A DNA stretch of 64,000 bases, from positions 64,001-128,000 of the forward strand of contig JAHQJS010000005.1 in NCBI GenBank assembly GCA_019057385.1. The letters run 5' to 3'. This document shows positions 7,830 through 64,000 of the stretch, piece by piece. The translations under genes were made by a program, and so were the position numbers. How positions within the stretch are numbered: position 1 is the stretch's first letter; each line of letters opens with the position of its first letter. The notes beneath the pieces are model-generated. The model searched no databases. It was not told where the DNA came from and was given only the letters and a program-made list of their open reading frames with translations. Origin of the DNA: Candidatus Borrarchaeum weybense. GTDB lineage: Archaea; Asgardarchaeota; Sifarchaeia; Borrarchaeales; Borrarchaeaceae.

Positions 7830-7876
7830 ACACTTATTTTTGTGACAGAAGAAGTTTCAATTGGATCGGAGTTTCA

Positions 7877-47059: not shown

Positions 47060-47350
47060 AAGAGCTTTTTCAATTTTTTTTTAAATAGTCTTCCAGAAGC
47101 CACAAGAACAGCGTAAAAGACGGTTTAATTTATAAAGTAAAGCTCCACATCTAGGACAGTGACCATATAAAGAAATATTCAACTCTGAATGAGTCTTAGT
47201 AGAATGAAAATTGCTGCTCACGGTTTATCAAGCATAATAATATATTTCTACCTTATAAGGATAAGAGAGGCTTTCATGTAAGTGAAAAAAGCAAAAGAAG
47301 AACTCTTAGAAACGTAAACGTGTTACAAATTTGTTTAAGGGTAATCCTAA

Positions 47351-48253
47351 TTGGTGAGAATGATGGATAGAAAGACACTTTCTTTGATCTTAATTCTAAC
47401 AGCGATATGGGGTACCGGCCCAGTTACTGCACGATTTCTTGTGGGAGTTTCAGGGGAGATCACCCCAACTGACCTTACTCTCTTGAGGTGGGTGATTGCG
47501 TTCATTTTCCTATTTGTACTACTTTGTAGAACTCAAAGTTTTAACGAATCAAAACTTTCATTTAGGGCAGATTGGTTGAATTTTCTGGCTATTGGCGCCG
47601 CAAATGCAGCATTTGGTTTATTGTTTTTGTTTGGAGTCAGTTTGAGTTTTGCTGTAAATGCTGCACTTTTAACAAATCTTCATCCTATTTTTATAGCTAT
47701 TTTAGCACATGTTTTATTAAACGAAAAAACTGGAATCAAGCAATCTCTTGGAATTTTTTCAGCAATAATTGGAATGCTGGTAGTTGTAACGCAAGGTGAT
47801 TTTTCATCATTAGTTCTTTCAGGACAGTTTATTGGAGATTTTCTATTAATACTTTCAGCTTTGGCGTGGTCTATTCAATCTCTTCTCGCCAGGAAACATG
47901 TTAAGACGTACGGAGGATTACAAACTCTTGCTTTAAGTGCTCCATTCACCATTATAATCTTGATTCCATTTGCAGTTATTTTAGGAAATATGCAGACGAT
48001 ATTCACCGTATCTCTGATTGGATGGCTTTTGATATTGCACTTCAGTTTGGGTATTTCTGGAATAGGTTATGTTTTATGGTTCTTAATTCTTCGTAGAATC
48101 GAAACCGCAAAGGCCAGCGTATCAATATTAATAGTCCCTTTATATACGATAATCTTCGCAAATATATTCTTAAACGAACCAATTACATTGATGGTAGTTA
48201 TTGGAACGGTGTTTGTATTGACAGGTATTTATTTGGTTCAAAAAGCTAAGTAG
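47351..48253 (+). CDS. DMT/EamA transporter
   Basis: About 10 TM helices in two EamA repeats. Confidence 0.9.
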   Translation: MVRMMDRKTLSLILILTAIWGTGPVTARFLVGVSGEITPTDLTLLRWVIAFIFLFVLLCRTQSFNESKLSFRADWLNFLAIGAANAAFGLLFLFGVSLSFAVNAALLTNLHPIFIAILAHVLLNEKTGIKQSLGIFSAIIGMLVVVTQGDFSSLVLSGQFIGDFLLILSALAWSIQSLLARKHVKTYGGLQTLALSAPFTIIILIPFAVILGNMQTIFTVSLIGWLLILHFSLGISGIGYVLWFLILRRIETAKASVSILIVPLYTIIFANIFLNEPITLMVVIGTVFVLTGIYLVQKAK

Positions 48254-48333
48254 TTGATGCGTCGAACCATTTTATACGAATTGGATCAGGTTCATATGGT
48301 CCAAATGGGGATTTGATGCAGAAAAATTTGCAA

Positions 48334-48813
48334 TTACGTCCCATTCTTAAGAGCTATTATTTCTTTAACATCTATAAGTTTCCATACGTAATTTCTTTCT
48401 TCTTTGACTATAGATTCAAGAGGTTCTTCAGGCGAATGACCAAGGGCTTTCAGGATATTCTTTGAAAGATTCTTATCTTTAATTAGTTGTACAAATCTTT
48501 CCCGTATGGTCTTCTTCTTGTTATCACCCTTCACTTCTACCAAGCGTCCTAAGAGGGTTACAAAGGAATAATCAGAGAGGTCTCGACTATATCTGTCCAC
48601 TTCAACGGAAACATTAGGATTTTGCTGGAAAAATTCGATTTTTTTACCATATTTGGTTGACAGAAAAAACATGTGCTTTCCATCAAAAATGTAAAGAAAC
48701 GGCGCAATATAGGGATGTTCTTTGCCTTTAAAAGCAATCCGACACACATATTCATCAATAATTAATTGATCATATTCCTTTCTGTCCATTTGTGGGATTT
48801 TTTGAATATCCAT
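48334..48813 (-). CDS. pyridoxamine 5'-phosphate oxidase-like FMN-binding protein
   Basis: CRIAF..PYIAP, G.K....NPNVSVEVD. Confidence 0.85.
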   Translation of the reverse strand: MDIQKIPQMDRKEYDQLIIDEYVCRIAFKGKEHPYIAPFLYIFDGKHMFFLSTKYGKKIEFFQQNPNVSVEVDRYSRDLSDYSFVTLLGRLVEVKGDNKKKTIRERFVQLIKDKNLSKNILKALGHSPEEPLESIVKEERNYVWKLIDVKEIIALKNGT

Positions 48814-49007
48814 AGATATCCCTGCATTCCATTAAATTTTCAACAGTTACCTCAATAAATCTTAGACTATAAAACTTATCAGGATTCATTCTCTTTTTCA
48901 ACCAATGTTTTGACAGATTCGATGAAGCAAAACACAAAAATGATGATTTCAATAGATATTACAATCAAGATTTTTAGTAAATATTGGTAAAAAAGAGTTG
49001 AGATTTT

Positions 49008-49910
49008 ATGACGTTCTCAATTATTGGTTATGATCCTAACACAGGTGATTTAGGAGTTGCCGTACAGAGCAAGTTCATGTGTATTGGAATTGTAACTCCA
49101 TTTGCGAAAGCAAATGTTGGAGCTCTTGCAACCCAATCTTGGATAAACACAACTTACGGCCCACGAGGGATTGAGATGCTAGAAACAGGTATGGGCGCGA
49201 AACAAGTCTTAAAAAAACTCATATCAACTGATGAAATGCGAGAATATCGTCAAGCAGCGATTATAGATTCCACAGGTGCAGTTGACGCATTTACAGGAAA
49301 GGATTGCTTCTATTGGGCGGGACACATCATTGGAGACAACTTCAGTTGTCAAGGTAATATTTGTTACGAAGGAACAGTTGAAAGTATGGCTAAGGCATTT
49401 GAAACTCAAAAAGGAGATTTAATTGACAAATTGCTTGCAGCAATGAAAGCGGGGGATGAAGAAAGAAGAGGGGACGTTAGAGGGAAACAAGCTGCTGCGC
49501 TTTTGGTTGTGCGTGAAAAAGGTGGTTATGAAGGCCTAAATGATCGTTACGTTGATATTCGAGTTGATGAGCATACAGAACCTATTAAAGAACTCTGTAG
49601 AATATTTGAACTCTATGATCTGACTTTCCTTGCCAGAGAAGCTACATCAAATTTGTTGACGATTGAAGGAGAAATTTCAATAAAAATAAAGCAAATTCTT
49701 ATAGAACTTGGTTATCTCAATGAGGCTGAAGCAGCGAAAGGGGATGGCTGGGAAAAAGTAGAGAGGGATGCCTTAGAGGCATGGATTGGAATTAACAATT
49801 TCGAAAGCAAATGGCGTGATGACGGTACGATATGGAAGTCAATCTACGGCTATATGATGAAAGAAAAAGGAACGTCTTTCGTTTCGCTCAGAAAAATGTC
49901 AGAATGGTGA
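49008..49910 (+). CDS. DUF1028 (Ntn-hydrolase-like) protein with C-terminal PG-binding-like domain
   Basis: MTFSIIG.D..TG.LGVAVQSK, GDVRGKQAAAL, DIRVDEH. Confidence 0.9.
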   Translation: MTFSIIGYDPNTGDLGVAVQSKFMCIGIVTPFAKANVGALATQSWINTTYGPRGIEMLETGMGAKQVLKKLISTDEMREYRQAAIIDSTGAVDAFTGKDCFYWAGHIIGDNFSCQGNICYEGTVESMAKAFETQKGDLIDKLLAAMKAGDEERRGDVRGKQAAALLVVREKGGYEGLNDRYVDIRVDEHTEPIKELCRIFELYDLTFLAREATSNLLTIEGEISIKIKQILIELGYLNEAEAAKGDGWEKVERDALEAWIGINNFESKWRDDGTIWKSIYGYMMKEKGTSFVSLRKMSEW

Positions 49911-49953
49911 ACTACCACCCTACAAGTTGGGGGGGTCTTCTTGCGGAGAAGGG
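49907..49953 (-). mobile_element. 47-bp IS200/IS605 left-end/right-end fusion element (PATE/MITE-like)
   Basis: Minus strand TTTAT|cccttctccgcaagaagacccccccaacttgtagggtggtagttcac; both halves are near-identical to the ends of the 9769-11149 element. Confidence 0.85.
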
Positions 49954-50025
49954 ATAAAGGGGAGACAAAATAACAATACTTTGAAAAACTAATGGTGTTT
50001 TGTCACAACAAATTATTATTTTGAT

Positions 50026-50340
50026 GGTTAGACTTCTTTAACCATATAAATGGTTGGTTAGATATATATTACCTATAGGTGAACCTACTATGAGCATTAT
50101 CATCAACACCAAATACACAAACAACAAACCCTATTATTACGTGTATGTAGTCTATGGTGAAGGCAATAAAGAAACCCATTACATTGGTAGTGCAAAAAAC
50201 CCAATATCATATGAAAAAGCATTGTATAAAGTCAAAGAGATCCTTAAACAAGAAATGCAGAAGAAACTTCACCATGCGGAAACACGAGCCGAGAACTTAA
50301 AGAATGAATACCTTTCTAAATAGGTTAAATATATCTAACC
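50026..50340. repeat. three GGTTA-N8-TAACC palindromic sites
   Basis: 50026-50043, 50056-50073 (TTACC variant), 50323-50340. Confidence 0.7.
50090..50323 (+). CDS. small basic putative DNA-binding protein
   Basis: KYTNNKPYYYVY...KETHYIGS, a beta-sheet motif seen in archaeal mobile-element proteins; AGGTGA RBS. Confidence 0.6.
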   Translation: MSIIINTKYTNNKPYYYVYVVYGEGNKETHYIGSAKNPISYEKALYKVKEILKQEMQKKLHHAETRAENLKNEYLSK

Positions 50341-50384
50341 TATATATGCTGCGTTTTTCTATTGTTATGTTTTCTATAATAGAT

Positions 50385-50969
50385 TCATACTATTTTGACT
50401 GTTCTAAATGCTTTTCTCATTGACTTAATGCTTTTCCGCGCGATTGATTCAGGATAGAATCCTAGAACCGCCTGATTTAGTGCTTCTAGGGATACTTCTC
50501 CGCTTATTCTGCAGAAAGCACCTAAAATTCCTATGTAATTATTACCGCCATAATTTTGATTTGTTAGGCTTTCATCTATTTCATTCATTGAAACTTTGTC
50601 AACATCTACTGTTGCTGTGGAGAATCCTATGCCGAAGAGTTCTATTAACTCGTATGGGGAATATGATGAATTGACAAGGAGAATGCCTGACCTTTTTAAT
50701 CCCTCTGTAACGTCCAATATTTTCAAAAACGAATCATCCAGTACTATGGTGTAATTTGGGCAGCAGATCTGTGGATAAGTAGATAAAAGTTTCTTGCTAA
50801 TTCGAATGGCAACTTTTAGAATCACTTCTGGTGTTGTGGTTTTAGGTTGAAACACTTGGGAACACTTATTCCTATAAGCTATTGCCTCAGCAAGGATCTC
50901 TGCTAATGTAACTACATTCATGTCTCCTCGACCGATTAAGAGAATTTCTTTGATTTTATAAAATGACAT
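50385..50969 (-). CDS. divergent 2-oxoacid:ferredoxin oxidoreductase gamma-subunit-like protein
   Basis: EILLIGRG, IRIS, PNYTIVLD, GLKRSGILLVNS; orphan with no alpha/beta genes adjacent. Confidence 0.7.
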   Translation of the reverse strand: MSFYKIKEILLIGRGDMNVVTLAEILAEAIAYRNKCSQVFQPKTTTPEVILKVAIRISKKLLSTYPQICCPNYTIVLDDSFLKILDVTEGLKRSGILLVNSSYSPYELIELFGIGFSTATVDVDKVSMNEIDESLTNQNYGGNNYIGILGAFCRISGEVSLEALNQAVLGFYPESIARKSIKSMRKAFRTVKIV

Positions 50970-51188
50970 GAGGGTACAACCTTTCTTAGAATAAATTGAA
51001 TCCTGTGTTTTGCTCCTTTTTATCGCATACTTATACTTTGAAATTAAAATTTAGACACTTTTTAATGGATATTTTTGTCTTAAGAACGCAGATTCTAGTA
51101 AAAACATTTGAATAGCGATTTAAAATTAGATCAAATCTTAAAACTTTTTAAGTAATAATAATTGACTTTGTAAATAGCAAATTTTTTC

Positions 51189-51608
51189 ATGGAGGAAAAA
51201 TTTATGCAATTCTCTCAGTTCTCTATAGCATTCCTGATTGACTTTATTGTGTTTGTAGCTATTGTGGCAGTTTCTGTAGCCATAACGTGCTGGCTTTGGG
51301 GCTATTCGAGATACAAATTTGCTTGGGGGTCAAGTATCGTTACTGGAATTGTAGCCGCTGTCGTATGGATTATATTTAGAATGTTACCGCTCGGTCGTTA
51401 TACCTTGGCTATTGCATTTGTTGCAGTCTTTGTAGTGATTCTTCTTGCACTTCGTCACTTTTGGCCTAAATTTTCTGAATGGCCAACAGCGTTTCTCGGT
51501 ACGCTGGTTTGTATCGTTATAGTCATTGTCATTTGGCTGGTAATTTCATTTATCATTGCGGGGCTGGGTTTGATAGCAGGATATCTGCCCCCACTGAGTA
51601 TATTCTAA
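51189..51608 (+). CDS. membrane protein
   Basis: Four hydrophobic segments. Confidence 0.65.
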   Translation: MEEKFMQFSQFSIAFLIDFIVFVAIVAVSVAITCWLWGYSRYKFAWGSSIVTGIVAAVVWIIFRMLPLGRYTLAIAFVAVFVVILLALRHFWPKFSEWPTAFLGTLVCIVIVIVIWLVISFIIAGLGLIAGYLPPLSIF

Positions 51609-51774
51609 CACCAGAATCTAAAAAATTCTTTTCTTTTTTTTTAAGACGGTCATATGAGTTTTTTGAGAAGCTAAAATGAACTAAGAGATAATAAAATTCA
51701 AGACAACGAATGAAGAGCTGAAATAGATTATTATAAAAAAAAGGCGAAAAAGAGAAAAAATGGATCGGGATAGA

Positions 51775-52098
51775 CTATGTAACTTGTGCAATTATTGCAA
51801 GAATAGCGCCTATTATAACGAGTAATCCCCCGAGACCAAGCACAATTATACCAAAGATTAGGGCAAGTATTATGTATACCCACTCATCTAACTGATCTGC
51901 AACGCGGAGAACAATAATTATTATTCCGATAATTATTGATATAGCCGCTGCAATTAAGCCACCAAGAGCACCTAGCGAACTTGGAACACCAAGTCCGATT
52001 CCCACGAAACTCAACGCTCCTTGGACAATCATAAGGATTGCACCGACAATCACTAGTATCCATGCCGCTAATAAAATACCACCAGACGGTCTAGCCAT
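51775..52098 (-). CDS. small membrane protein
   Basis: Highly hydrophobic Gly/Ile-rich ORF; GGTGA RBS. Confidence 0.65.
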   Translation of the reverse strand: MARPSGGILLAAWILVIVGAILMIVQGALSFVGIGLGVPSSLGALGGLIAAAISIIIGIIIIVLRVADQLDEWVYIILALIFGIIVLGLGGLLVIIGAILAIIAQVT

Positions 52099-52340
52099 AC
52101 AATCACCATTTCAATATCTTATTTCAGGTTAGGATGAACCCGATTTCCTAGTATATAACTTGTTCGCATTCAAGCTTGTAGAGAACCATGGACTTAAACA
52201 AATATCATAGAAGAAATCAACTTCAAGAGAATCAAATAATAACTATTTGAACACTATCGTTTTCTAGATCGAATAAGTGCCAATAACAAAGAATAAGGAT
52301 TCTCTAAAATTATATAGAAAAAAAGGAAAAAATAATAGGA

Positions 52341-53699
52341 TTATACTTTTGGCAAGATTTCGAGCGATTTATCGATTTGTTCCTGTGGCATTTCATAGTC
52401 AACAAGGTTTCCAGCGAGATATTCTTCATATCCTTTTAAATCAAAATGACCGTGTCCGCTGTAATTAAAAGCAATCACTTTTTCTTCACCAGTTTTTTTA
52501 CATTTTTGTGCTTCTTTGATCACTGCAACGATAGCATGATTGGTTTCTGGCGCTGGAACGATCCCTTCTGTCTTTGCAAAGATCACTCCTGCTTCAAAGG
52601 TTTCTATTTGATGGTATGCAACGGACTCCAAGATACCTTCTTTTTGCAGTAGACATAAACTGGGGGCGTCTCCGTGGTATCTTAATCCTCCAGAATGAAT
52701 TGGTGGTGGGACAAACTCGTGCCCAAGAGTGTACATTTTCACTATAGGAGCTAACTTACCAGTATCTCCGTAATCGTAGGCATAAGGTGCTCTTGTCAAT
52801 GTAGGAACCGCCTTCGGCTCAACAGCAATAAATCGGATATCTTTTCCTTTCAATTTGTCTGGAACAAACGGATAAAAGAACCCTGCAAAATTACTGCCGC
52901 CTCCAACGCAGCCAAGCATCATATCAGGATATTCCCCAATCTCTTCAAACTGTTTTTTAACCTCCTGACCTACAATTGTTTGATGTAGCAGGACGTGATT
53001 GAGCACGCTTCCTAGACTGTACTTAATTTTATCGTCGTTTAGAGCATCCTCCACAGCTTCAGATATTGCTAAACCAAGGCTTCCAGGATGGTCAGGATTT
53101 TCCTTTAAAACACTTCGTCCGACCTCTGTATTATTAGACGGACTTCGGAAAACTTCGCTGCCATAAGTCTGCATTAATACGCGTCTATACGGTTTCTGGT
53201 CGTAACTGACACCAACCATATATACACGGCATTTTATGTCAAAAAGGGCACATGCGAGGGAGAGCGCACTTCCCCATTGACCTGCACCTGTTTCAGTTGT
53301 AATTTGTTCTACACCTTCTTTCATTGCAAAATACGCTTGGGCGATAGCTGTGTTGGGCTTATGACTTCCCGTAGGGCTGAGATCCTCTCGCTTATAGTAG
53401 ATCTTAGCTGGCGTATCCAAATACTCCTCAAGCCGTTTTGCCCGATATAGTGGGCTTGGTCTACCTAATCGCCTGTAAGCCTCTTGTAACTCTTCAGGAA
53501 TAGGAATGTATCTTTCTGGGGACATCTCCTGTTGTAGAAGTGCAACAGGGAACAAAGGCATTAAATCAGGAGGACCACAAGGTTCTTTCGTTACAGGGTG
53601 TAACGGAGGAGGGAGAGGGGCTGGTAGGTCGGCTAATACATTATACCATTGAGTTGGTAACTCATCAAGGTTTAAGACAACTTTTACACCATCATACAT
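52341..53699 (-). CDS. trpB2: tryptophan synthase beta, TrpB2 type
   Basis: [41 protein letters not shown]. Confidence 0.95.
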
Positions 53700-54035
53700 T
53701 TTCAATCACCTCAAATTTTTTAGATTTCTATTTTTATTTTTCAAAAAAGTTGGAAACGAGGGGGTATCAATAGCTGTTGAAATAGTGGGCTACTGCCACC
53801 GCCAAGAATGCCAGGGATGCCAAGAAAAGTTTGAAAAGCTCAAAGCTAAGTCAATTAAAAATTCAGGAGTAAAATCTGTTGGAGTTTTATAAAAACCTTT
53901 TTCCGGGCAGGGTGGTTTAGCTTCAAGACTGAGAGAAAAGAAAAGACATTTTGTTAAAGCAAATCCCATTGGCGCAATCAAACCACCTAATCTGCCTATT
54001 TCTTTAGGCTTGTTATTTAAATCTTTCTCTGTTTT

Positions 54036-54183
54036 ATTACATTTTTCGTCCCCTGCGAGTCATCCATTCCCAACAATTGAGGCGTCGGACCTCTGAATTG
54101 GTTCAGTCTCATGCACAAGAACGTGTCCCACGTGATATACGAGGAACATACCGCCTTGTAACTCATGTATTCTCTTTCAAAGA
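54036..54183 (-). repeat. long structured repeat R3 (148 bp), putative guide-RNA scaffold
   Basis: 9 mismatches versus 55447-55594; TTTATATA box just upstream on the minus strand (54194-54187). Confidence 0.9.
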
Positions 54184-54351
54184 TTCTATATAAACACCGC
54201 GATTCTGCTAAACCAACTTTTTCTTACCACTTTTCGATCCTGAAAGCAAAGCAGAGCTGAGTTTTCTACAGCTTATTTTTATCCCTCATTAAGTTGCTTC
54301 CTGAAAAAACGAATTTTTACTGCCACTCCTCTCGAAAACAATTTAACGTTG

Positions 54352-54534
54352 TCACTTCTGTCGATTTTGCATCGCTCCCCACCTTGAAGATTTCTTCCTG
54401 TTCGTCAAATTTAACTCATGATGTTCCGCTAGGAGCCGATACAAGTTGTAACGTGGCAATAAAAAGTTGCATTCGAGGCAACAAAATGTTGTTTTAACAG
54501 ATTCAATACAATGATCCATTCTTGTCATGTTCAC
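54352..54534 (-). CDS. possible small ORF coupled to the Cas5-HD gene
   Basis: GTGA overlap with the upstream stop; no recognisable motif. Confidence 0.25.
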   Translation of the reverse strand: MNMTRMDHCIESVKTTFCCLECNFLLPRYNLYRLLAEHHELNLTNRKKSSRWGAMQNRQK

Positions 54535-55343
54535 AAACCACTATTCAAGTCGTCAAGATAGAGATTTACCATTAATAAGAGATGATTTTTCAAAGACGAA
54601 AACCCAAATTTTAACGCTTCGTTGATCTTATCAAGTGCTTGACATTTTCGAATAAAAGTATAAAGGGCATACGGGGAATATTGGCACTTTTCTATCTCTC
54701 TTTTTAATGCATCGAAATTTATCTTTTCTAGTTCAGTCACACGATAACGCGTGAACGCAGACCATCTAAATTTTCGAGAAATCATTGCAGAAAGTCTATC
54801 ATAATACTGAAGAAGAGGGAGAAGAGGCAATTCAGCCTCATCTGTATCATAGTTGTGGTGATTTTCCACAAACTTACGGACTTCTTCATCAAGTATATTA
54901 ACTTCAGAGTAGATTTTGCTCTGATGTCGATTAGTGTGTACGAAATCATGTAGTAACATAGCTATAACTAATGTTTCTTGCACGTTGGAGAGTTTAGGGA
55001 GTTTTTTACGGATCTTAATTGTTCTTGAAATATAGAGCGGATTTTTTTTGAGTTTACTAACAGAAGTCCATAAGATTTGCCCCATCCCTTCACATGTATA
55101 ACTCCCAACACTGTCAATGGCGAGCGCTTCTTCAAGTTTATATTCTGGAACGATGAACTCAACATTTCCATACCATGCCCTAAAGGTCATAGGCGCACGT
55201 CTTTGCCCTACAGTCAATTTTCCGAATACCCTAGGACGACCATTTATGGTCATCGCTCCAATATCGGCAATTCCAAAATGCCTGCGCCTTGAAACGATAG
55301 GAGTTTTTGTATAACCCATTAATTTAAAGTATTTTTGTGACAT
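54531..55343 (-). CDS. Cas5-like RAMP fused to Cas10-type permuted HD domain, copy 2
   Basis: TPIVSR, VGSYTCEGMGQI G-loop, IRKKLP, LLHDFVHT..HQSKIY, NHH, YDRLSA, SSLKNHLL; collinear with 17453-18274. Confidence 0.7.
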   Translation of the reverse strand: MSQKYFKLMGYTKTPIVSRRRHFGIADIGAMTINGRPRVFGKLTVGQRRAPMTFRAWYGNVEFIVPEYKLEEALAIDSVGSYTCEGMGQILWTSVSKLKKNPLYISRTIKIRKKLPKLSNVQETLVIAMLLHDFVHTNRHQSKIYSEVNILDEEVRKFVENHHNYDTDEAELPLLPLLQYYDRLSAMISRKFRWSAFTRYRVTELEKINFDALKREIEKCQYSPYALYTFIRKCQALDKINEALKFGFSSLKNHLLLMVNLYLDDLNSGL

Positions 55344-55446
55344 TTAATCCCCTCTTTTTAGGTCTTATCTCCTCTTGAAACAAAAGAGAGGAGATACAAA
55401 CCTTGCCAAAGTAAACGCTTTTGCAACTTTTATTAGTAAAGTGGGT

Positions 55447-55594
55447 ATGACATTTATCGTTCCTTGCGAGTCATCCTTCCCCAACAATTGAGGCGTCGGA
55501 CCTCTAAATTGGTTCAGTCTCATGCACAAGAACGTGTCCCACGTGATATACGAGGAACATACCGCCTTGTAACTCATGCATTCTCTTCCAAAGA
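55447..55594 (-). repeat. long structured repeat R2 (148 bp), putative guide-RNA scaffold
   Basis: Direct repeat of 54036-54183; internal hairpins GAGG-N7-CCTC and ACGTG-GGA-CACGT. Confidence 0.9.
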
Positions 55595-55717
55595 GATACT
55601 ATTATTAATATAGTACACGTACAGGCGTCAAGAAGGAAGGAGAGGATTAACCTCTCCCTAAAGTAGGACGGTGTTAAAGCAACATCCGTTGGCGCAATCA
55701 AAACCGCCTGTATTTTG

Positions 55718-55806
55718 ATGACATTTTTCGTCCCCTGCGAGTCATCCTTCCCCAACAATTGAGGCGTCGGACCTCTAAATTGGTTCAGTCTCATGCACAT
55801 GAACGT
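55718..55806 (-). repeat. repeat R1 (89-bp core of the long repeat)
   Basis: Near-identical to the minus-strand 3' 89 nt of R2 and R3. Confidence 0.9.
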
Positions 55807-55868
55807 ATCACTCACAAAAGTAAGTGATAGTCCGTTATGAGATGAGAAAAAAGAATGAGATGGAGTTA

Positions 55869-56687
55869 TCATGCAGTCACCGTTTCTTCGTTTTGTTCGT
55901 TTTGTTCGCTAAAATTCAAAGAATCCCTCCAATCCTCGATATTACTGAGAGAGATAGGTTTTTCAGTTGCTTTTTCGACAATTTTATAATTTCCTTTGTT
56001 ATCTTCCGCGACATTGCGAGTAGTTTCGATCTTCTGGAGGTCGAAATTGAAAATCGTGACGCGACCATAACCACTCGCTCGTCCTGCGCCCAGAATCTCA
56101 ACATATAATAGCGATTCCATGAGAAACTTGATTTCTGTATTCGTTAATTTGGTCACATCAATGTAAAAACTGAAATAGCCGCTGAAATAACTCTCCCTAA
56201 AATCTTGGATAGCTATACCATCATAGGTGAGCGCAATTCTGTTTTCACTAGCGATATGGACTTTTTGGACTGGAACTTCAGTTAAGTATTCTTTATGTTT
56301 GATTGAGGCAATAGGATCTGCTAACACATTAATAGAAGATTTCTCGCCAAATGCACCAAAGATTTTTCGCAGAATGCAGGGAGGATCACATGTACCAAGT
56401 GCATGAAAACCAGAAGGGATGAGTCCAGTGCCATCTTTGAATGTCTCCTTTTCACTGGTATGACATACCTCGATACCGCACTCCTGAGCGAGCGCCATAC
56501 AGGCATGTCTTAGCATCCCTCGAATACCTTTGATATAATAGAATTTAGTGTTGAAGGTTTTGTCTCCATTCACATACGGAAGTTCTCCTAACAAAAGCAT
56601 GGTCGAATTTTTTTGAATCGAGGCATTAAGAGGCTTAGCAATAGGGGTAAAAGCATGAACCACTAACTGTTTTTTGATTTTTCTCAT
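55869..56687 (-). CDS. cas7: Cas7-family RAMP (Csm3-like), copy 2
   Basis: IAKPLN, KGIRGMLRH, EVCH...C...CILRKIFG, HIASENRI, LGAGRASGYGRV; collinear with 16630-17472. Confidence 0.8.
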   Translation of the reverse strand: MRKIKKQLVVHAFTPIAKPLNASIQKNSTMLLLGELPYVNGDKTFNTKFYYIKGIRGMLRHACMALAQECGIEVCHTSEKETFKDGTGLIPSGFHALGTCDPPCILRKIFGAFGEKSSINVLADPIASIKHKEYLTEVPVQKVHIASENRIALTYDGIAIQDFRESYFSGYFSFYIDVTKLTNTEIKFLMESLLYVEILGAGRASGYGRVTIFNFDLQKIETTRNVAEDNKGNYKIVEKATEKPISLSNIEDWRDSLNFSEQNEQNEETVTA

Positions 56688-56721
56688 GTTTCTAACCTCA
56701 ATTATAGTTAGTACAAGTACC

Positions 56722-56776
56722 TATATAAACCTTGCTCAAAATAAACACTTTTCCAACTTTTATTAGTAAATTGGGG
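56722..56776 (-). promoter_or_regulatory. cas7 promoter region (TTTATATA box), matched by the guide after R2
   Basis: TATA at 56729-56722, 35 bp upstream of the ATG; GAGGT RBS. Confidence 0.7.
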
Positions 56777-56780
56777 AATT

Positions 56781-56866
56781 AATTGACTTCCTTCTGAGAA
56801 AATAAGTATTTTAAACGGCTTTTAGCAAAAAAATCATTAAAAAAGTAGAACCCCCTTTATAAATAA
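56781..56866. repeat. 86-bp direct repeat, copy A
   Basis: 66/86 ungapped identity to 62135-62220. Confidence 0.7.
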
Positions 56867-57033
56867 CAACGTATTGAGACGATTTGTATTATTGTCTTTT
56901 TAAAAGAATAGTTGAACAATTTAACAAAATGAAACATTCTTGAAGATTCAAAAGGAATAAATTTATGGTCTCAACTGAACTAACACACGTTTTTAAAAGA
57001 ATATGTATACTATAACTGATTCTTAATTAAGTA

Positions 57034-60000
57034 TTAGGGTAAAAGATCCTTTACAGCAACTGGAGGACCTTTTTTCGGTGGTTTATAGATGCCTTCCAGA
57101 TGTTGAAACCGCTCATACATCAAGTGGAGAGTTTCCTTATCTGGAGCGTAGATAAAGGGGACAAAGCGCTTTTTTTCCAACAAAAAACCCTTGAGTTGTA
57201 GTGCGCACCGCCTTATAGCTTCCTTTACTGTCATATATTCTTCTAGATAGTATACCTTTTGAGCGAGTATGTTGTTAACCAATCTCTCAACTTTGTAGTG
57301 TCCATTCCAGTTAAGATGATAGAATCGTTCACGCTCTAGTGTTTTACGTCGAATGAAATCAGTTTTCGCAAATTTATCATGTATACATGCAAAGATGAAG
57401 GCGAACCTGAACAGGGGAAGAAACACCTCTCGGAAGTCAACAACAGTGCCAAGAAAAGATCTTTGTTTTTTCTTATAATGCAATATCAGTTCGTTGGGTA
57501 CCCAGGAGAACCCTGCCTCAGCGAGTGCTTTTCGACAGTAAAAGTTAAGGTGTCGATAGACAGCATTGAGTGCAGCACTAAAGGGAGTTCGCGCCTTTGC
57601 TTCCCCCAGAAGCACCACTGTGGCAATATAGCGGTCGAGGGTACGACTGATGATTTCAAAATAACTGCCCTGAAGCAAATGCTTGGGAACCTCCCAGGCA
57701 ATGCTTTCCACTACGCCTTCAAGACCGCGAAGGTTGTCAATATTGCCCCGCCAATAGAGAAACGTATACGCCACGCGATCCAGTAGTTGGGATAAGAATT
57801 CCTGTGCCTCTGCAGGAGATAATAATCCCTCTTTTTCAAAATGGAGAATTGCATTGGCGAGTCCCATATTTTTACTCATCACCAGCAACCTCGCTAATAA
57901 CTTGCCTCGTTCCGTCTCTCTGAGTTGCTGGGCGGCGTGTTTCAGTTCATCGGCTAATTGTTGTTTCTCGGGTGTCAGTGTATGCTCTACAAAGAATCTG
58001 CCTTCGGGCGAATTAATATCAATGAGTTTTTTACCATAGTTCTTACGAACCTGTTGCGTAACTTCTCCACCCTCGATGATGATGTGACGGATAGCACCGA
58101 TTAAATATCGCTGTGTTGTTTTCCCGTCCTTTAAGGAATGAGTAAATCGTTTTTTCTTAATATCAAGCTGTTCACCGCACTTGACACGGATGATTCGTTT
58201 TGGTCGTCGAATGTAAACCCTTGTTTTTTTAACCCGCGGGACATAATTTCCAGCCTTGCCTAAAAGCAATTCCAACCCTTTTAACATCAAACCTCGGCGG
58301 CCTGGTTTCACCACTAGGTCACCTTTCATGGTTAAATAATAGCGGGAATTGCATTCAGGACAGACGGTGTATTCGTTATAGCGTGACGGCAGTTCCACTG
58401 TACCGTCGGAGTTGCAGAAGTAGCATGGAGTATCATCAAGTGTTTCTTGTAAGACACGAATTGTGCGCTTTTTTAACTTCCGCGCTTTCGTATGATATTC
58501 GCAGGCACCCATCTTTGGTGCGACATAAGACTTTCTTGCTCGCCTTCCAACTTTTGTGTTATACTTACGATTCAACACGCAAATATGTGCACGTTTCGAT
58601 CTGCGACGGTCCTTCATGGAGTTTATCCGAAAGAAGCCACATGAGCCACAGGTGAGGCGCAGATGTTCAGGAAGACTCACATTCACATCTGCCACATAGA
58701 TTTTGGGGCGACCTCGTAACTGCCCTTGAGAGATAAACTGGATTTTTCCCTGGATTCCTAACCGCTTGACATGTTTAACTACCGTGGTGTAGTGAACTGG
58801 TCTTTTATATTGCTTACGAACTTTTGTCGTAATTTGTTTATAAGAAATAAGTTTATACTGTTTAATAAAGGTGTAGATTGCTTCCTGAAGTCCTGGATAT
58901 GGTTTCGGTCTATGTTTTGGATACCAGCGTCTCCTTCTGCCTTTGTTCCCTCTTTCAACTTCAGGCTCTTTGTATTCAGGATTTAGTTTTGAGGTAAGTT
59001 CTTTAGCAACCCTTGCCGCCCTCGGGTCGCTGCGCCCCAGATAGTCATAACTTGCTTCTGCGATCCATGACGCCGTCTTTCTATGTGCTTCTGCATCACC
59101 CGGTCTTATGTTTACCCGAGTTGCCGCTTCTGTGACTGAAGAACCCTGACTGAGTAACCATACGAAAGAGGTATATTGTTGGGTGGTGTATCGTGTGGTG
59201 CTGCTCACTTCATGCATGCTTCGCCCGATTAGTGTAATCACGTGCCGGGAGAATTCCCGTTCTGAGGAGCAGTGATGTGTGGCAAAAAAATTCTTGATCC
59301 TGATGGCGGTTTTAGTCGGCAGTAAAAATTGGCTGGCCCAGCGTCCTTTGGCTGTTGCACTAAACTTTCCACCATTTCTTTTGATAAAACCTTCCTTGAT
59401 AAGTGTGTGAAGGATTCCCTCTCTTTTTTTCTTCGGTTCATCCTGCTTAGGTCGAGCTAACAGTTTCTCTCTTAGTTGTTGTGTAAAGTCTTTCAACTGG
59501 TCGTGGGTGAATGGTGTCAACAGTAAGCGAAGCTCTCCATTTTTGATTCCGCGTGTAGTGGTGTTCTTCTTGACCCACATGAAGAATTTTCTCGTTACGC
59601 GTTTCAAGTCGAATGGGAGAGAGCCTTCGTGCGTTTCGCGCAATAAGGAGAGTAAATGAAGTTCGTTATTGAGCCAGCAAAGCTCCTCCTCATGAGTCAA
59701 GAGTGCGGTATTCATTAGTTCGGACCAATTCTGTAGCAACGCTTTGTGTTGATGCCAGAAGTAATGTCTTTCAAGTTTGAGGAGCAATTGTTTCGTGGAT
59801 ACCGAGCCTCTAGCTATCAGGGTGAGTACAATATCTGCCAAAGAAGAACGAGCTTGGCTTACTATACGATGTTCTTTGACTATCAATTGTCCTTCAACGA
59901 TTTGAATATCCTTTTGCTTCAAAATCTCTTGGTCGTCCCCCACGAAGATCAGATCGGCATAGCCCACCCGATGATGGCGCGGTCGTGCCGCCCTGCCGCT

Positions 60001-61125
60001 CAATTGTATCAACAGTTGAGAGCTGAACATTCCTGCATCGGCAATTATCACCCTTTTGATCGGAAAGTCCACCCCCTCTCCGTATTGAGTCGTTGATAAA
60101 AAGACCTGAAATTCACCCTTCTTAAGTTTTCTCATAGCTTTTTGTTGTTTCTCTTTACTGAGCCCAGCATGGCTGTAGCCAACGGTTAGATTGAGCCCAA
60201 AACTCTTTAGAAAGGTCTGCAATTCTTCAGCGCGTTGTTCAACCTGATTTCGTGTGTAGCAAAAGATATGCACGATTTTAGTCCGCTGATCATCGCCATA
60301 TGAGTGTAGTTCAAAGGTCTTTTTGATCAAGCGAGCGAACAGAAAGCGCTTTTTTCGTTCGATCTGCTCTATTGTGCTGCCTGAAACTCCAAAAGACGAT
60401 ACAATAAGTTTCGACCGCCGTTCTTTGGTATGGATAAGTTGAGCATCGAGCCAGCTTGCCAGTTCCTCAGCATTCCCCAAAGTAGCCGAGAGATAGATGA
60501 TGTGAGGACGAGGTCGCAACCACGCTTTCGCATTGACAATCGCGGTTTCTAGACACGTACCCCGCCCTTTGTTACCCAGATTATGCAGTTCATCGACTAC
60601 AATTAATCCTATCCTGTCTAAAAACGGATACTCGAAATGTTTGGCTAGCAGCCCATTGAAGGATTCGTAGGTGATGATGAGGATATCCGCAGTTTCAAGC
60701 TCTTCAGGAGACGGTCGGTTATCTCCGCTGACCCGGAGGATGGTGCAGATGTCGTGATACCACTCTTTGAACCTGTCATACATCTGATCGATCAGCCGTT
60801 TGGTCGGCTCAAGGATCACACAGCGCATCCCTTTTCCAAGGATGCGGGTGGACACTATTTGGGCGATCAAGGTTTTTCCAGAAGCGGTGGGAGTGTATAA
60901 CACTTTGTCATGTCTTTGCTTACCAGAAAAGCATGCCTCCCATTGAAAGTCATAGAGAAGTTTAATGTCAGCCTGTTCCAATTGTTGACGTATAAATTCG
61001 TAGTTTAACCCTCTTTTCGTCATTGTAAGGAACTGTCCCCTCAATCCCTGTGTCTCACTTATGATGGTTGAAAAGTTCTTTATAAAGAGGGCAAACCTTT
61101 GGATCACTGGCTTGATAACTGTCAC
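57034..61125 (-). CDS. Ski2/Hel308-like SF2 helicase - wHTH - Zn fingers - Cas1-like integrase fusion
   Basis: Helicase motifs PTASGKT, VVDELH, LSAT, HAGL, GEGVDFP, QLSGRAAR; Cas1-like LRGLEG, PFSAALNAVY, ILH, VVDFREVF. Confidence 0.8.
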   Translation of the reverse strand: MTVIKPVIQRFALFIKNFSTIISETQGLRGQFLTMTKRGLNYEFIRQQLEQADIKLLYDFQWEACFSGKQRHDKVLYTPTASGKTLIAQIVSTRILGKGMRCVILEPTKRLIDQMYDRFKEWYHDICTILRVSGDNRPSPEELETADILIITYESFNGLLAKHFEYPFLDRIGLIVVDELHNLGNKGRGTCLETAIVNAKAWLRPRPHIIYLSATLGNAEELASWLDAQLIHTKERRSKLIVSSFGVSGSTIEQIERKKRFLFARLIKKTFELHSYGDDQRTKIVHIFCYTRNQVEQRAEELQTFLKSFGLNLTVGYSHAGLSKEKQQKAMRKLKKGEFQVFLSTTQYGEGVDFPIKRVIIADAGMFSSQLLIQLSGRAARPRHHRVGYADLIFVGDDQEILKQKDIQIVEGQLIVKEHRIVSQARSSLADIVLTLIARGSVSTKQLLLKLERHYFWHQHKALLQNWSELMNTALLTHEEELCWLNNELHLLSLLRETHEGSLPFDLKRVTRKFFMWVKKNTTTRGIKNGELRLLLTPFTHDQLKDFTQQLREKLLARPKQDEPKKKREGILHTLIKEGFIKRNGGKFSATAKGRWASQFLLPTKTAIRIKNFFATHHCSSEREFSRHVITLIGRSMHEVSSTTRYTTQQYTSFVWLLSQGSSVTEAATRVNIRPGDAEAHRKTASWIAEASYDYLGRSDPRAARVAKELTSKLNPEYKEPEVERGNKGRRRRWYPKHRPKPYPGLQEAIYTFIKQYKLISYKQITTKVRKQYKRPVHYTTVVKHVKRLGIQGKIQFISQGQLRGRPKIYVADVNVSLPEHLRLTCGSCGFFRINSMKDRRRSKRAHICVLNRKYNTKVGRRARKSYVAPKMGACEYHTKARKLKKRTIRVLQETLDDTPCYFCNSDGTVELPSRYNEYTVCPECNSRYYLTMKGDLVVKPGRRGLMLKGLELLLGKAGNYVPRVKKTRVYIRRPKRIIRVKCGEQLDIKKKRFTHSLKDGKTTQRYLIGAIRHIIIEGGEVTQQVRKNYGKKLIDINSPEGRFFVEHTLTPEKQQLADELKHAAQQLRETERGKLLARLLVMSKNMGLANAILHFEKEGLLSPAEAQEFLSQLLDRVAYTFLYWRGNIDNLRGLEGVVESIAWEVPKHLLQGSYFEIISRTLDRYIATVVLLGEAKARTPFSAALNAVYRHLNFYCRKALAEAGFSWVPNELILHYKKKQRSFLGTVVDFREVFLPLFRFAFIFACIHDKFAKTDFIRRKTLERERFYHLNWNGHYKVERLVNNILAQKVYYLEEYMTVKEAIRRCALQLKGFLLEKKRFVPFIYAPDKETLHLMYERFQHLEGIYKPPKKGPPVAVKDLLP

Positions 61126-61176
61126 AAAATCCCCTCTTTATAAATTAATTATAACCTATTGACAGTAGTGGCAACA

Positions 61177-62124
61177 ATGTCTTTCGAAGAACACCTTAAG
61201 CAAGGAAATGAGTTTTATGAACAGAAACAATACCGAAGGGCGTTAAAACATCTCACAAAGGCTGCAAAATTAAAACCAAAAGACTATCAACCTTGGCAGA
61301 AATGTGGAGATATTTATTTTACTTTGCACATCTATCAGAAGGCAATCAAATGTTGGAAAAAGGCGTTTGCGAAAAAACCTGACGAAATGTCACCCTTGGT
61401 CGGCATAGCTAATTCATACGGATTCTTGGGCGAATACGAAAAAGCCATCAAATACTGTCAAAAGATATTGAATACACAACCAAACTTTCCTTTAATTAAA
61501 CTCTTGATGAGCAATATAAAAGATGTACAAGAACATTCACCTCTTACCGATGAAGAGGTAGCAAAAATAAAAGAAGCAGATTCAAAAAAGGTCATCACAA
61601 GTGTCGTAATCCGTGGTATAGACTATTATGTTATTAATAACACATTAAAACTTCGCGATCTAAATATCAAAGATATTAAACACATCAAAGGATTGGAAAA
61701 TCTTACCAATCTCCAAGAACTTGATCTAAGCGGGAATAAAATATCAGTAATTGAGGGATTAGACACACTTTGCAATCTTCAAGAACTTAATTTAAGTGCG
61801 AATAAAATTACTATGATACAAGGTTTAGATACCCTTACCAAGTTACAAGTTTTAGAACTTTACGACAACCAGATCAATAGGATAACTGGACTGGATAACC
61901 TTACGCAATTGAAAAAGTTATATCTTAATGGGAACTCGATAGAAACAATTGACGGAGTGGAACAACTCACGAATTTGGAAGTTTTAAGCCTTGCAGATAA
62001 CCCTCTATGTGAGGAAGATCGACGCGTGTACGAACGAAGTGTGACAGCTATGGATGCCCAGTATTGTGTAAAATATTGCCAGAAAAAGATGTCGATATTT
62101 TCTACCAAGAGTCCTAATAACTAA
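61177..62124 (+). CDS. TPR + leucine-rich repeat (SDS22-like) protein
   Basis: Three TPRs followed by LxxLxxLxLxxNxIxxIxGL repeats. Confidence 0.9.
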   Translation: MSFEEHLKQGNEFYEQKQYRRALKHLTKAAKLKPKDYQPWQKCGDIYFTLHIYQKAIKCWKKAFAKKPDEMSPLVGIANSYGFLGEYEKAIKYCQKILNTQPNFPLIKLLMSNIKDVQEHSPLTDEEVAKIKEADSKKVITSVVIRGIDYYVINNTLKLRDLNIKDIKHIKGLENLTNLQELDLSGNKISVIEGLDTLCNLQELNLSANKITMIQGLDTLTKLQVLELYDNQINRITGLDNLTQLKKLYLNGNSIETIDGVEQLTNLEVLSLADNPLCEEDRRVYERSVTAMDAQYCVKYCQKKMSIFSTKSPNN

Positions 62125-62134
62125 ATAGAGAATC

Positions 62135-62220
62135 AATAGACTTCCTTTTATGATATAAAGTGATTAAAAAGGCTTTTAGTTGAAAAATCAAAGAAAGAGT
62201 AGAACCCTCTTTGTAAATAA
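62135..62220. repeat. 86-bp direct repeat, copy B
   Basis: 66/86 ungapped identity to 56781-56866. Confidence 0.7.
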
Positions 62221-62612
62221 TATGAAGACTAAGAATGTAAGTTGATGAGATCTGAAAATATTTATTTTGTTGATTTACAGATCTCTTCAAATTAATTAGT
62301 CATAATTAACTTTTCAGAAAATTTATGTAGGAGAATCCATATTACATTTTAGTTAATCATAAGAAGCGATATTAAGAAGTTACTATATGAAAGATTATTC
62401 TGATTTAAATTTTACTTTCACCCATCACACTCTAACTCTTATTTGGGTTACATTAAATGTATTAATTATGAAGTTTAGTTGTGCATTTTTGTCAAAATAA
62501 AAATGATAATAATGCAAGTATGTGCTATCAAATAAGATGAGGGGCAGAGTTTACTCTTTTTAATGGGGAAATTCAATCTTCATCTTAACAATGATTTTAG
62601 AGAGTGATAAAC

Positions 62613-63308
62613 ATGGGAGCGATCGAAGGGTTTGTAGTAGGTATTGCCTCTAATGTAGCTTATGATTTAATCAAAAAGCTTTCAAGAATTGAAATATTCA
62701 AGCAGATACCAATAAGAACTAGTTTCAGTCTTGTAATTAATTTTAGAGAAGGTATCGAGGTTATTGAAATTGATAATAATTTGACTAAGACATTTCGAGA
62801 AGAGTTTGGAATCAAAAAAGATCAGAAGAAAGTACCATTTATTGAAATTGATAATCTAAAATTATATGTACTTATAGACTACCATTATCTTGAAGATAGC
62901 GAAAAAATCATTGATGCTTTGAATGATATCTTTGAAATAAGAGAGGAAGATGCAGTTCAACCAGAATTCATAGATGCATTAACCATACAAATTTTTCCCG
63001 ATGATACGAAAGAATTAGATGACATATTAATGGTTATGGATGTTTTGAAAGATATAAAGAGACTTATTCAACGTGATTACAATATTGAAAAAGATTTGAT
63101 CTGGCTACGCTTGGATGTTGATGATGAAAAATCAGCGATCTTAATACAAAAGAAACTTGTTGAAAGTTTTCCCGAATTAATTATTATTAAAAATAAAGAT
63201 ATGCAGAATAATGTTTTTTTGAAAATAAAAGATACTAGTGACTTAGAATTAAAACAAATAATAGATGTTCTAAAATCTAACAGAATCAGAAAAATACTAC
63301 ACATTTGA
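62613..63308 (+). CDS. hypothetical protein
   Basis: Long AT-rich ORF, no recognised motif. Confidence 0.6.
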   Translation: MGAIEGFVVGIASNVAYDLIKKLSRIEIFKQIPIRTSFSLVINFREGIEVIEIDNNLTKTFREEFGIKKDQKKVPFIEIDNLKLYVLIDYHYLEDSEKIIDALNDIFEIREEDAVQPEFIDALTIQIFPDDTKELDDILMVMDVLKDIKRLIQRDYNIEKDLIWLRLDVDDEKSAILIQKKLVESFPELIIIKNKDMQNNVFLKIKDTSDLELKQIIDVLKSNRIRKILHI

Positions 63309-63317
63309 GATGATTTA

Positions 63318-64000
63318 ATGGTTTTTGTCTGCCGAGTTTTGAAAATTATGCCAAGATATGATGATCAAGTCAAGCAATTATTGAAAAAACCATCTGAAAT
63401 AGTATTTGATACAATAAGACAAAGTGAACTCATTGAATTAAAGCTATACATAGATGAACCTGCTGAAGAGAACGATTTTGGCTTTTTAATAACAGCCTAT
63501 GTTGATATACCTCAAACATTATGGAGTAAAGATACAGGTACTTATTCTACGAAAATCACAAAAAAACTAGAAGTTCAAATATTTACTACTCCTGAAGTTG
63601 GAAACTATTTAGTCGTATTTGCATCAAATATTCTTGTAAAGGAATTTGTAAATTCTGTAACTAAGATATTAAATACAGTTGAATGGTTTAAGCCAGTATT
63701 AATAGATACTGACCGAAAAGAGGAAGAGATAAGAAATGAGTTAGGCGATTTTAGGCGTGTTTACGTGAAAGATATGGATGATGATCTTGTAAAAACAGCA
63801 ACAATGGGTGGTCTAAGACTAGAATTGTCGTCAGATTATGCTAGATATATTAGAGATTATGGGGGTAGGCTAAGTGCAGTTTCGCTTATTTATGAAGGTA
63901 ATTGGATGATGATAACGTTTAGAGGAATTTTTTATTCACCTAGTAAAGATGCCGAAAGTAGGAAAGTTGAAATAATTCACAACTTACTGAAACTTCTAAA
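63318..64000 (+). CDS. hypothetical protein, truncated by window end
   Basis: Open frame MVFVCRVLKIMPRYDDQVKQLL... running off the window. Confidence 0.6.
   Translation, partial: MVFVCRVLKIMPRYDDQVKQLLKKPSEIVFDTIRQSELIELKLYIDEPAEENDFGFLITAYVDIPQTLWSKDTGTYSTKITKKLEVQIFTTPEVGNYLVVFASNILVKEFVNSVTKILNTVEWFKPVLIDTDRKEEEIRNELGDFRRVYVKDMDDDLVKTATMGGLRLELSSDYARYIRDYGGRLSAVSLIYEGNWMMITFRGIFYSPSKDAESRKVEIIHNLLKLL

Follow-up and report, generated by a model that had tools for sequence, protein, structure and literature searches.

An ARAMP-type locus of Candidatus Borrarchaeum weybense as a candidate RNA-guided homing or integrating element

The genome of the Asgard archaeon Candidatus Borrarchaeum weybense carries, next to trpB2, an inserted island with three co-oriented minus-strand genes and three copies of a scaffold RNA (R1, R2 and R3) among them. 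The genes encode a helicase-Cas1 fusion (HelCas1), a Cas7-like RAMP protein (Cas7L) and a Cas5-like RAMP protein with a Cas10-type HD domain (Cas5HD). The 3' tail of R3 resembles a guide, with a match to host sequence beginning right at the island junction, and similar matches are found at other islands of this family. The locus lies in a 64,000-nucleotide (nt) window, the whole stretch of DNA analysed (positions 64,001 to 128,000 of contig JAHQJS010000005.1), and coordinates given without a prefix are those of the window. G000 is the source genome, G004 a genome of the same genus, and L-numbers designate individual loci. Its proteins place the locus in the described ARAMP family; the gene set is not unprecedented.

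The locus and its proteins

The features of the island and its flank are as follows.

53952..53987, minus strand: host target (attachment-site flank), chromosomal sequence also present in the G004 empty site
53988..64000, minus strand, continuing about 548-550 bases past the window end to G000:C5:128548 (about 64548): inserted island of 10.56 kb, from synteny with G004
54032..54168, minus strand: scaffold RNA copy R1 (covariance-model match, 148 bits)
54185-54193, minus strand: TATA-like box of R1 (sequence reading)
54531..55343, minus strand: Cas5HD, Cas5-like RAMP plus Cas10-type HD, 270 aa (VIA-align, homolog alignment)
55443..55579, minus strand: scaffold RNA copy R2 (TATA-like box upstream; covariance-model match)
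55631-55658, minus strand: hairpin and T-run 3' of the R3 guide-like segment (sequence reading)
55672..55709, minus strand: guide-like segment of R3 (local alignment to the junction flank)
55714..55849, minus strand: scaffold RNA copy R3 (covariance-model match, 131 bits; P1 hairpin with compensatory changes)
55869..56687, minus strand: Cas7L, Cas7-like RAMP, 272 aa (Pfam PF03787, AlphaFold model)
57034..61125, minus strand: HelCas1, 1363 aa (Pfam, NCBIfam, homolog alignment)
61159..62124, plus strand: TPR and LRR repeat protein, island cargo, divergent from HelCas1 (Pfam)
62604..64000, plus strand: two cargo open reading frames (ORFs) of 234 aa and 237 aa, no assigned function (ORF calls)

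The island thus contains R1, cas5HD, R2, R3, cas7L, HelCas1, the TPR/LRR gene and the two ORFs, and the AT-rich stretch that follows these reaches the distal junction beyond the window end. R3 begins 20 nt past the cas7L stop codon. R1 reads outward, with its 3' end about 45 nt from the island junction, and the host target overlaps the start of a small ORF upstream of trpB2. An earlier reading of these letters alone (the sequence-only reading) had placed the feature at 53950-62220. The feature is real, its three co-oriented genes being confirmed by ORF calls and family matches, but the extent was too small: the island starts at 53988 and ends some 550 bases outside the window. The absence of a CRISPR array, cas2 and cas6 near the locus, also claimed there, was borne out, none of these being found in the window. 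The sole canonical CRISPR-Cas locus of the genome lies elsewhere (G000 C4:145000-155000), with about 35 repeats of 36 nt in arrays at 145-149 kb, cas1 at 153602-154474 and cas2 at 154630-154842. The 33 spacers of these arrays match nothing else in the genome and thus give no sign that the host targets these elements. No island protein matches a Cas6 family in Pfam or NCBIfam. The palm and cyclase domains of Cas10 are likewise absent from the island, which has solely the Cas10-type HD on the 270-aa protein and no larger subunit.

Cas7L matches the Pfam RAMPs family (PF03787, E 1.5e-7). Its AlphaFold model (pLDDT 85) retrieves exclusively Cas7 subunits in Foldseek, those of types VII and III first; the top matches are Cas7 of types VII, III-E, III-A, I-A, I-D and IV, with E-values down to 3e-8 and probability 1.00. 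Cas5HD has no sequence-family match above threshold in Pfam or NCBIfam. Its model (pLDDT 84) comprises two parts, an N-terminal RAMP/RRM domain and a C-terminal HD domain. Foldseek returned weak RAMP rows for it (E 0.03-0.2), and clearer matches came from a wide VIA search. In VIA-align, residues 119-270 best match the HD domain of Csm1/Cas10 (6ifk_A, Z 8.5; 6mua_A, Z 7.1), while residues 1-107 match RAMP domains, with little difference between Cas5, Cas6 and Csm4 (Z 5.5-6.1). All HD motif residues are invariant in 22 Cas5HD homologs. The two proteins are predicted to form a complex, with an ipSAE of 0.70 against 0.00 for the best control, in which Cas7L would be contacted through the RAMP domain of Cas5HD. 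The calibration mark for this score is passed by 58 of 80 solved complexes and by 2 of 110 mismatched pairs; the runs share at least 81% of contacts and partner pLDDT is at least 72. The likeness of the pair to solved Cas5-Cas7 complexes may be the source of this pass.

Residues 59-382 of HelCas1 form a Hel308-type SF2 helicase (Pfam DEAD, ResIII and Helicase_C; NCBIfam), and the C-terminal 380 or so residues a Cas1 domain. Pfam Cas_Cas1 (PF01867) matches residues 984-1261 (E 3.9e-9, 36.5-40 bits against a cut-off of 22.3) and TIGR00287 (cas1) residues 999-1321, with E 2.6e-7 and a score under the family's own cut-off. The region between helicase and Cas1 contains four CxxC pairs and a hint of a winged helix, and translation probably starts at the ATG at 61023. 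Four positions (E, H, D and E) do not vary among 9 aligned HelCas1 homologs. They are read as the Cas1 motif residues, a placement made by visual comparison with the canonical Cas1 that the genome encodes and with the alignment of the latter to a solved Cas1. Against solved structures, phmmer with the Cas1 domain found nothing and a profile of the 9 sequences nothing relevant. Alignment with the canonical Cas1 by hhalign gave a probability of 0.2%, though the EG motif was aligned. Of the three folds that the sequence-only reading had proposed, Cas7 and the RAMP with a Cas10-type HD agree with the models, and Cas1 with hidden Markov model (HMM) matches and motifs; for the last, the structure-database profile search gave nothing relevant.

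The source genome has about 11 Cas7L/Cas5HD modules, six of them with HelCas1. The latter is full length in five; the sixth copy (L025 6010-10069, in the module at C4:417-424 kb) is split into overlapping ORFs of 574 and 782 aa, probably by a frameshift. Named homologs of Cas7L and Cas5HD all come from Asgard metagenome-assembled genomes, of Promethearchaeota, Sifarchaeia, Borrarchaeum, Hodarchaeales, Hermodarchaeota and Heimdallarchaeota. The window itself contains a second, distant pair (16630-18274, plus strand; 42% and 34% identity to the main pair), with overlapping genes and no HelCas1 nearby. Another such pair (50% and 47% identity) is found in a virus-like Asgard contig (L065 10001-11516, L066 4097-5612), between portal and terminase genes; this contig also encodes Cas4 and PCNA.

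Scaffold RNA, insertions and the match between tail and flank

R1, R2 and R3 resemble each other at 94% and about 66-95%, far beyond chance. They belong to a family of scaffold RNAs of about 135 nt with 25 copies in the source genome, and a covariance model finds 41 copies across the source genome, three genomes of the same genus and metagenome scaffolds. The repeat proposed by the sequence-only reading is thus present in homologous loci, where it had been suggested that it should be sought. No Rfam family matches window 53500-62500, even at E 1. The first hairpin (P1) has compensatory changes in 8 of its 9 pairs. Over the 41 sequences, 95% of cells are paired and 81 are changed on both sides, against 27.7±4 in shuffles (none of 500 reached 81), with slid controls far lower; the alignment was fitted to the covariance model, which somewhat favours this score.

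A copy of the RNA stands in a fixed place after each RAMP gene in all modules, with uniform orientation: the standard module has RNA1 after cas7L and RNA2 after cas5HD, and the window locus has an extra copy. RNA2 copies are preceded by a TATA-like box at a distance of about 35 nt, and a hairpin with a T-run 60-100 nt downstream forms their end. The long repeats had been read as guide scaffolds forming an array. The conserved, structured RNA of homologous loci and the R3 3' segment fit the scaffold part of this proposal; the array part does not stand, since these are single RNA genes. Among the three window copies, a stored guide is present in R3 alone; R1 is read out toward the flank, and directly behind R2 lies the cas5HD promoter region (55407-55445), a copy of the cas7L promoter region (56737-56775). 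All RNA1 loci have a tail of this kind, a copy of about 50 nt of the cas7L promoter region that is clade-specific between elements and alike within each element. This tail may be a plain promoter duplication or shared regulator site, or an autoregulatory guide.

Solo copies of the scaffold occur away from RAMP genes (G000 C4:562853, C4:1262866, C6:210642 and C7:108106, and many in G001-G004), and G004:C118 keeps a scaffold and the region upstream of HelCas1 without the genes between them. Beside the distant RAMP pairs (window 16630-18274, G028, a Promethearchaeota contig and the virus-like contig) the RNA was undetected by this covariance model, a result that is not equal to absence. The scaffold 3' motif ACGA-AAA was compared with the 5' tag of type III-A crRNA, ACGAGAAC (PMC5389561). 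The two are similar, but the motif lies 10-20 nt from the guide start and not against it, and the likeness is therefore not relied on.

The island is an insertion with a precise empty site beside trpB2 in G004, the site that the sequence-only reading had proposed to look for in relatives. The trpB2 genes are 97% identical, and window 46409-53987 is syntenic with G004:C77 1-8966. From G004:C77 8978 onward the match resumes at G000:C5:128549 onward, that is, 10.56 kb further on in the source genome. G004 is uninterrupted here and the island therefore spans 53988 to about 64548. Precise empty sites were also found for four related islands, for L021, L022 and L029 in both G004 and G002 and for L028 in G004:

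L021, 10.5 kb: splits the ftsY 5' end and supplies a diverged replacement 5' end
L022, 6.9 kb: HelCas1, cas7L, cas5HD and two RNAs, nothing else; tentative 8-bp duplication
L028, 5.3 kb: without HelCas1 and without cas5HD
L029, 5.3 kb: without HelCas1

The original ftsY 5' end is orphaned, which shows that these are insertions and not deletions in the relatives. Moreover, since L022 consists of three genes and two RNAs only, no other recombinase is available in it. In the three closest paralogous loci, the stretch of similarity begins at the HelCas1 start and stops exactly where the RNA2 scaffold does. L023 and L024 were uninformative, complex or rearranged against the comparators, and L026, L027 and L030 are outside the mapped set. 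In DNA of the source study, contigs of four runs were placed on the locus, and two further samples carry the same island. No contig from the four runs joined across it, so that no population-level empty site was seen. The public runs listed as carrying this DNA include none of RNA.

The guide-like 37 nt of R3 lie 11-14 nt past the scaffold and match 53952-53988 with 34 identities over 37-39 columns. The score of 22 compares with a maximum of 13.5 in 200 random 3-kb regions. The matched target is the host sequence starting exactly at the island junction and is present in the G004 empty site. When the 3 kb downstream of all 25 tails were searched, each against 200 random 3-kb controls, 5 of the 25 tails beat all 200 controls, and all five matches begin at the independently mapped junction or within about 10-30 nt of it. 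The rule holds for every one of the five source-genome islands with mapped junctions (34/37, 28/34, 25/30, 16/17 and 24/25). The matches end after 25-37 nt, at five different host genes, and the targets are first codons of host genes, including the small ORF before trpB2, ftsY, a PRC-barrel gene and a dihydroorotate dehydrogenase gene. All mapped guides are in the sense of the target gene; they could therefore pair with DNA and not with mRNA.

Two comparisons between genomes bear on how guide and target are related. The L022 guide matches the G004 empty site at 33 of 34 positions, against 25 of 30 for its own occupied flank. In the ftsY-targeting element, the source genome and a metagenome scaffold differ at the same three positions in both guide and target. 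This co-variation and the empty-site match argue that the relation between guide and flank is maintained. Comparable tail matches occur in three further elements, significant ones to the downstream neighbouring gene being seen in G004 (78 nt, 87%) and on a scaffold of a distant clade (48/60). In a sixth island, L029, position 7871 is the last of the scaffold and the junction follows at 7872-7877, which makes the flank itself the tail. A 22/26 antisense match between a target-like segment and cas7L had no better match among paralogs and was taken as chance.

Several neighbouring features recur. TPR and/or LRR genes lie divergently beside HelCas1 in three islands (window 61159-62124, L021 12873-15170, L024 13038-17670) and are absent from the minimal island L022; they may be recurrent accessory genes or cargo. 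A 98-nt direct repeat (76%) at 56769-56866 and 62123-62220 occupies the intergenic region between HelCas1 and cas7L and the region directly 3' of the TPR/LRR gene. Promoter-like CCCTCTTTATAAA boxes are present at 61076-61091, at 61132-61150 and in both copies of this repeat. Unrelated short repeat elements of about 320-380 nt, with many copies in all genomes of the genus, are inserted near ARAMP islands (L022 5035-5414 and 13219-13537), as is a 1.4-kb multi-copy element (L024 1488-2887).

A possible mechanism and its alternatives

On balance, we favour the view that this ARAMP-type locus is an RNA-guided homing or integrating element, with HelCas1 as the likely integrase. The island, its empty site and the junction-matching R3 tail fit that far with the programmable Cas1-based mobile element envisaged by the sequence-only reading. 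The core machine would consist of a minimal Cas7L-Cas5HD effector derived from type III CRISPR systems, the scaffold RNA with its 3' tail as guide, and HelCas1. The scaffold RNA would be transcribed from its own TATA boxes or together with the RAMP genes, and Cas5HD and Cas7L would assemble on scaffold and tail. The tail would pair with the template strand at a host site, in most cases one that covers the opening codons of a gene, and the two proteins and the RNA would in this way recognise the attachment site. The element would then be placed, or kept, with its RNA-proximal end directly against this site, HelCas1 being the probable integrase and the HD nuclease a possible source of nicking or cleavage. 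At the window locus, the R3 tail would be the stored guide for the trpB2-adjacent site, toward which R1 also reads.

A number of observations weigh against this interpretation. Identity between guide and target is as low as 77-96%, and about half of the source-genome RNA tails have no detectable match. The tail at G004:C46 matches about 300 nt inside the neighbouring gene and not at the mapped junction; in a check for a surrogate 5' part, identity rose there from about 0.76 to 0.93 near the guide match, in windows too short for a verdict. Two loci, L023 and L024, are rearranged. Terminal inverted repeats and shared termini were not found at four mapped elements, and target duplication is limited to the tentative 8-bp case of L022. 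Paralogous elements are 72-89% alike; the elements are old and no recent transposition is visible. Five of the 11 modules are without HelCas1, so that Cas1 is not always present, and L028 is also without cas5HD. The Cas1 assignment itself draws on HMM matches and motif reading, the solved-structure profile search and hhalign having given no significance. Finally, guides might have been copied from the flank once the element was in place, instead of having selected the site. Duplication of a scaffold together with its flank could have produced the R3 and R1 regions, for which reason the window locus alone cannot settle the direction of cause.

The most ambitious form of the favoured view can be put forward only tentatively: a natural, programmable insertion system built on Cas1, in which Cas7, Cas5-HD and a scaffold of about 135 nt with a 25-37-nt 3' guide direct HelCas1 to place a 7-10-kb element against the matching site, Cas1 possibly writing new guides too. 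If integration were indeed carried out by Cas1, an RNA-guided mobile element that employs the CRISPR adaptation enzyme itself would have been found for the first time. This would bear on how casposons, adaptation modules and effectors were joined, as a link so far missing between casposons, RNA-guided transposition and CRISPR adaptation. With its three genes, the system would also be a compact candidate for the guided insertion of large DNA.

The alternative that survives best, unlikely as we judge it, is homing and retention of the TnpB/IscB type. An RNA-guided HD nuclease would cut element-free sites, on other chromosome copies or after DNA exchange, and homologous repair would copy the island in, while HelCas1 would be otherwise employed, for example in writing guide segments or aiding repair. 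The scaffold does lie at or near the element end, reading into the flank (L029; R1), the catalytic HD residues are invariant, and for the L022 guide the empty site is a better fit than the occupied one. The terminus of L022 resembles a scaffold 3' end and could mark the occupied site as self. The rule is followed even by L028, which has no HelCas1. Yet different host sites are accompanied by different guides, and retargeting and first-time integration are therefore needed, which homing alone leaves unexplained. The target is intact beside the island, so that self-cutting must be avoided by some rule, and the preservation of HelCas1 at full length in five modules, with the sixth split, also speaks against this explanation. 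Even this weaker reading would carry the logic of OMEGA systems over to a class 1 effector of several subunits, in the archaea most closely related to eukaryotes.

We regard as rather improbable an array-less defence or regulatory system in which the RNA is a structural cofactor or cis-regulatory, the likeness of tail and flank being a by-product of insertion such as duplication of an end with its flank. The published summaries place ARAMP among derived, possibly non-programmable defence systems (PMC8730458, PMC12669027), a proposal first made for HRAMP and ARAMP. The modules are patchy among close relatives, like defence islands, and one RAMP pair sits inside a virus-like contig. The RNA1 tail is the cas5HD promoter region, duplicated from that of cas7L, and the R3 and R1 regions resemble duplications of scaffold and tail. 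A by-product, however, leaves three things unexplained: guide and target change together from host to host, a guide agrees at 33 of 34 positions with an empty site in a different genome, and discrete 25-37-nt matches lie at five host genes. Furthermore, the islands restore the 5' end of split genes, as integrating elements do.

A small selfish family, similar to miniature inverted-repeat transposable elements, or terminator or untranslated-region elements accumulating by RAMP genes would suit the solo copies away from these genes (four in the source genome, more in relatives), but is very improbable given the fixed position and orientation after each RAMP gene, the TATA box of some copies, the fold preserved by covariation and the lack of terminal repeats.

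Relation to known systems

The effector proteins point to type III and type VII CRISPR systems: the Cas7L fold is closest to Cas7 of types VII and III, and the HD domain to Csm1/Cas10. In type IV-C the large subunit is reduced and a Cas10-like HD is all that it retains (PMC8730458), a reduction shared by Cas5HD. The locus differs from all three types in having no Cas10 palm, Cas11, Cas6 or array, and in the fusion of the HD to a Cas5-like RAMP.

Casposons have in common with these islands a Cas1 homolog as the presumed integrase of an archaeal mobile element. However, the islands have RAMP genes and RNAs, and neither a PolB match nor terminal inverted repeats. Their target duplication is at most the tentative 8 bp of L022, whereas that of casposons is 14-15 bp.

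CRISPR-associated transposons (CAST; I-F3, I-B and V-K) likewise bear a nuclease-poor or altered CRISPR effector on the element, with a guide that matches a conserved host site by one end in a fixed orientation. No TnsA/B/C or TniQ was recognised among the island ORFs by Pfam or NCBIfam, and the candidate integrase here is HelCas1. The guide is a single scaffold plus tail instead of a repeat-spacer array, and the target abuts the element end, whereas in CAST it lies about 50-80 bp away.

OMEGA systems (TnpB/IscB with omegaRNA) resemble the islands in the long structured scaffold at the element end, in the flank that is usable as a guide (L029, R1) and in a possible homing or retention logic. 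In contrast, a multi-subunit RAMP complex with an HD nuclease would act here. The island has no RuvC protein by Pfam or NCBIfam, and several of these elements keep an internal guide copy.

The closest relatives remain the ARAMP loci themselves, which have been an unexplained CRISPR derivative since 2020. Some Asgard Cas1 systems were reportedly suggested to be unknown mobile elements when ARAMP was described by Makarova et al. in 2020 in the CRISPR Journal. In the published summaries, ARAMP are array-less Asgard CRISPR derivatives with diverged Cas5 and Cas7 and, in most cases, a distinct Cas1, and their mechanism is described as enigmatic and expected to differ from CRISPR; HNH and PD-(D/E)xK are the commonest of their added nucleases (PMC8730458, PMC12669027). 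The locus agrees in its Asgard host, its diverged Cas7, its distinct Cas1, its added nuclease and the lack of a CRISPR array beside it. For the Cas5 feature, the N-terminal RAMP domain of Cas5HD matches Cas5, Cas6 and Csm4 about equally. The locus differs in its nuclease, a Cas10-type HD fused to the Cas5-like protein instead of the usual HNH or PD-(D/E)xK. The literature search found no paper on an RNA component or guide of ARAMP, and the published summaries give no RNA component. Relative to the literature found, four things appear new: the RNA scaffold, its tails that resemble guides, the insertions mapped together with their empty sites, and the rule that links tail and attachment site. 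ARAMP was thought to be non-programmable because it has Cas1 and RAMPs but no array. A scaffold RNA whose tail spells out the attachment site gives it a testable RNA-guided mechanism, for which the pairs of filled and empty sites define the experimental substrates.

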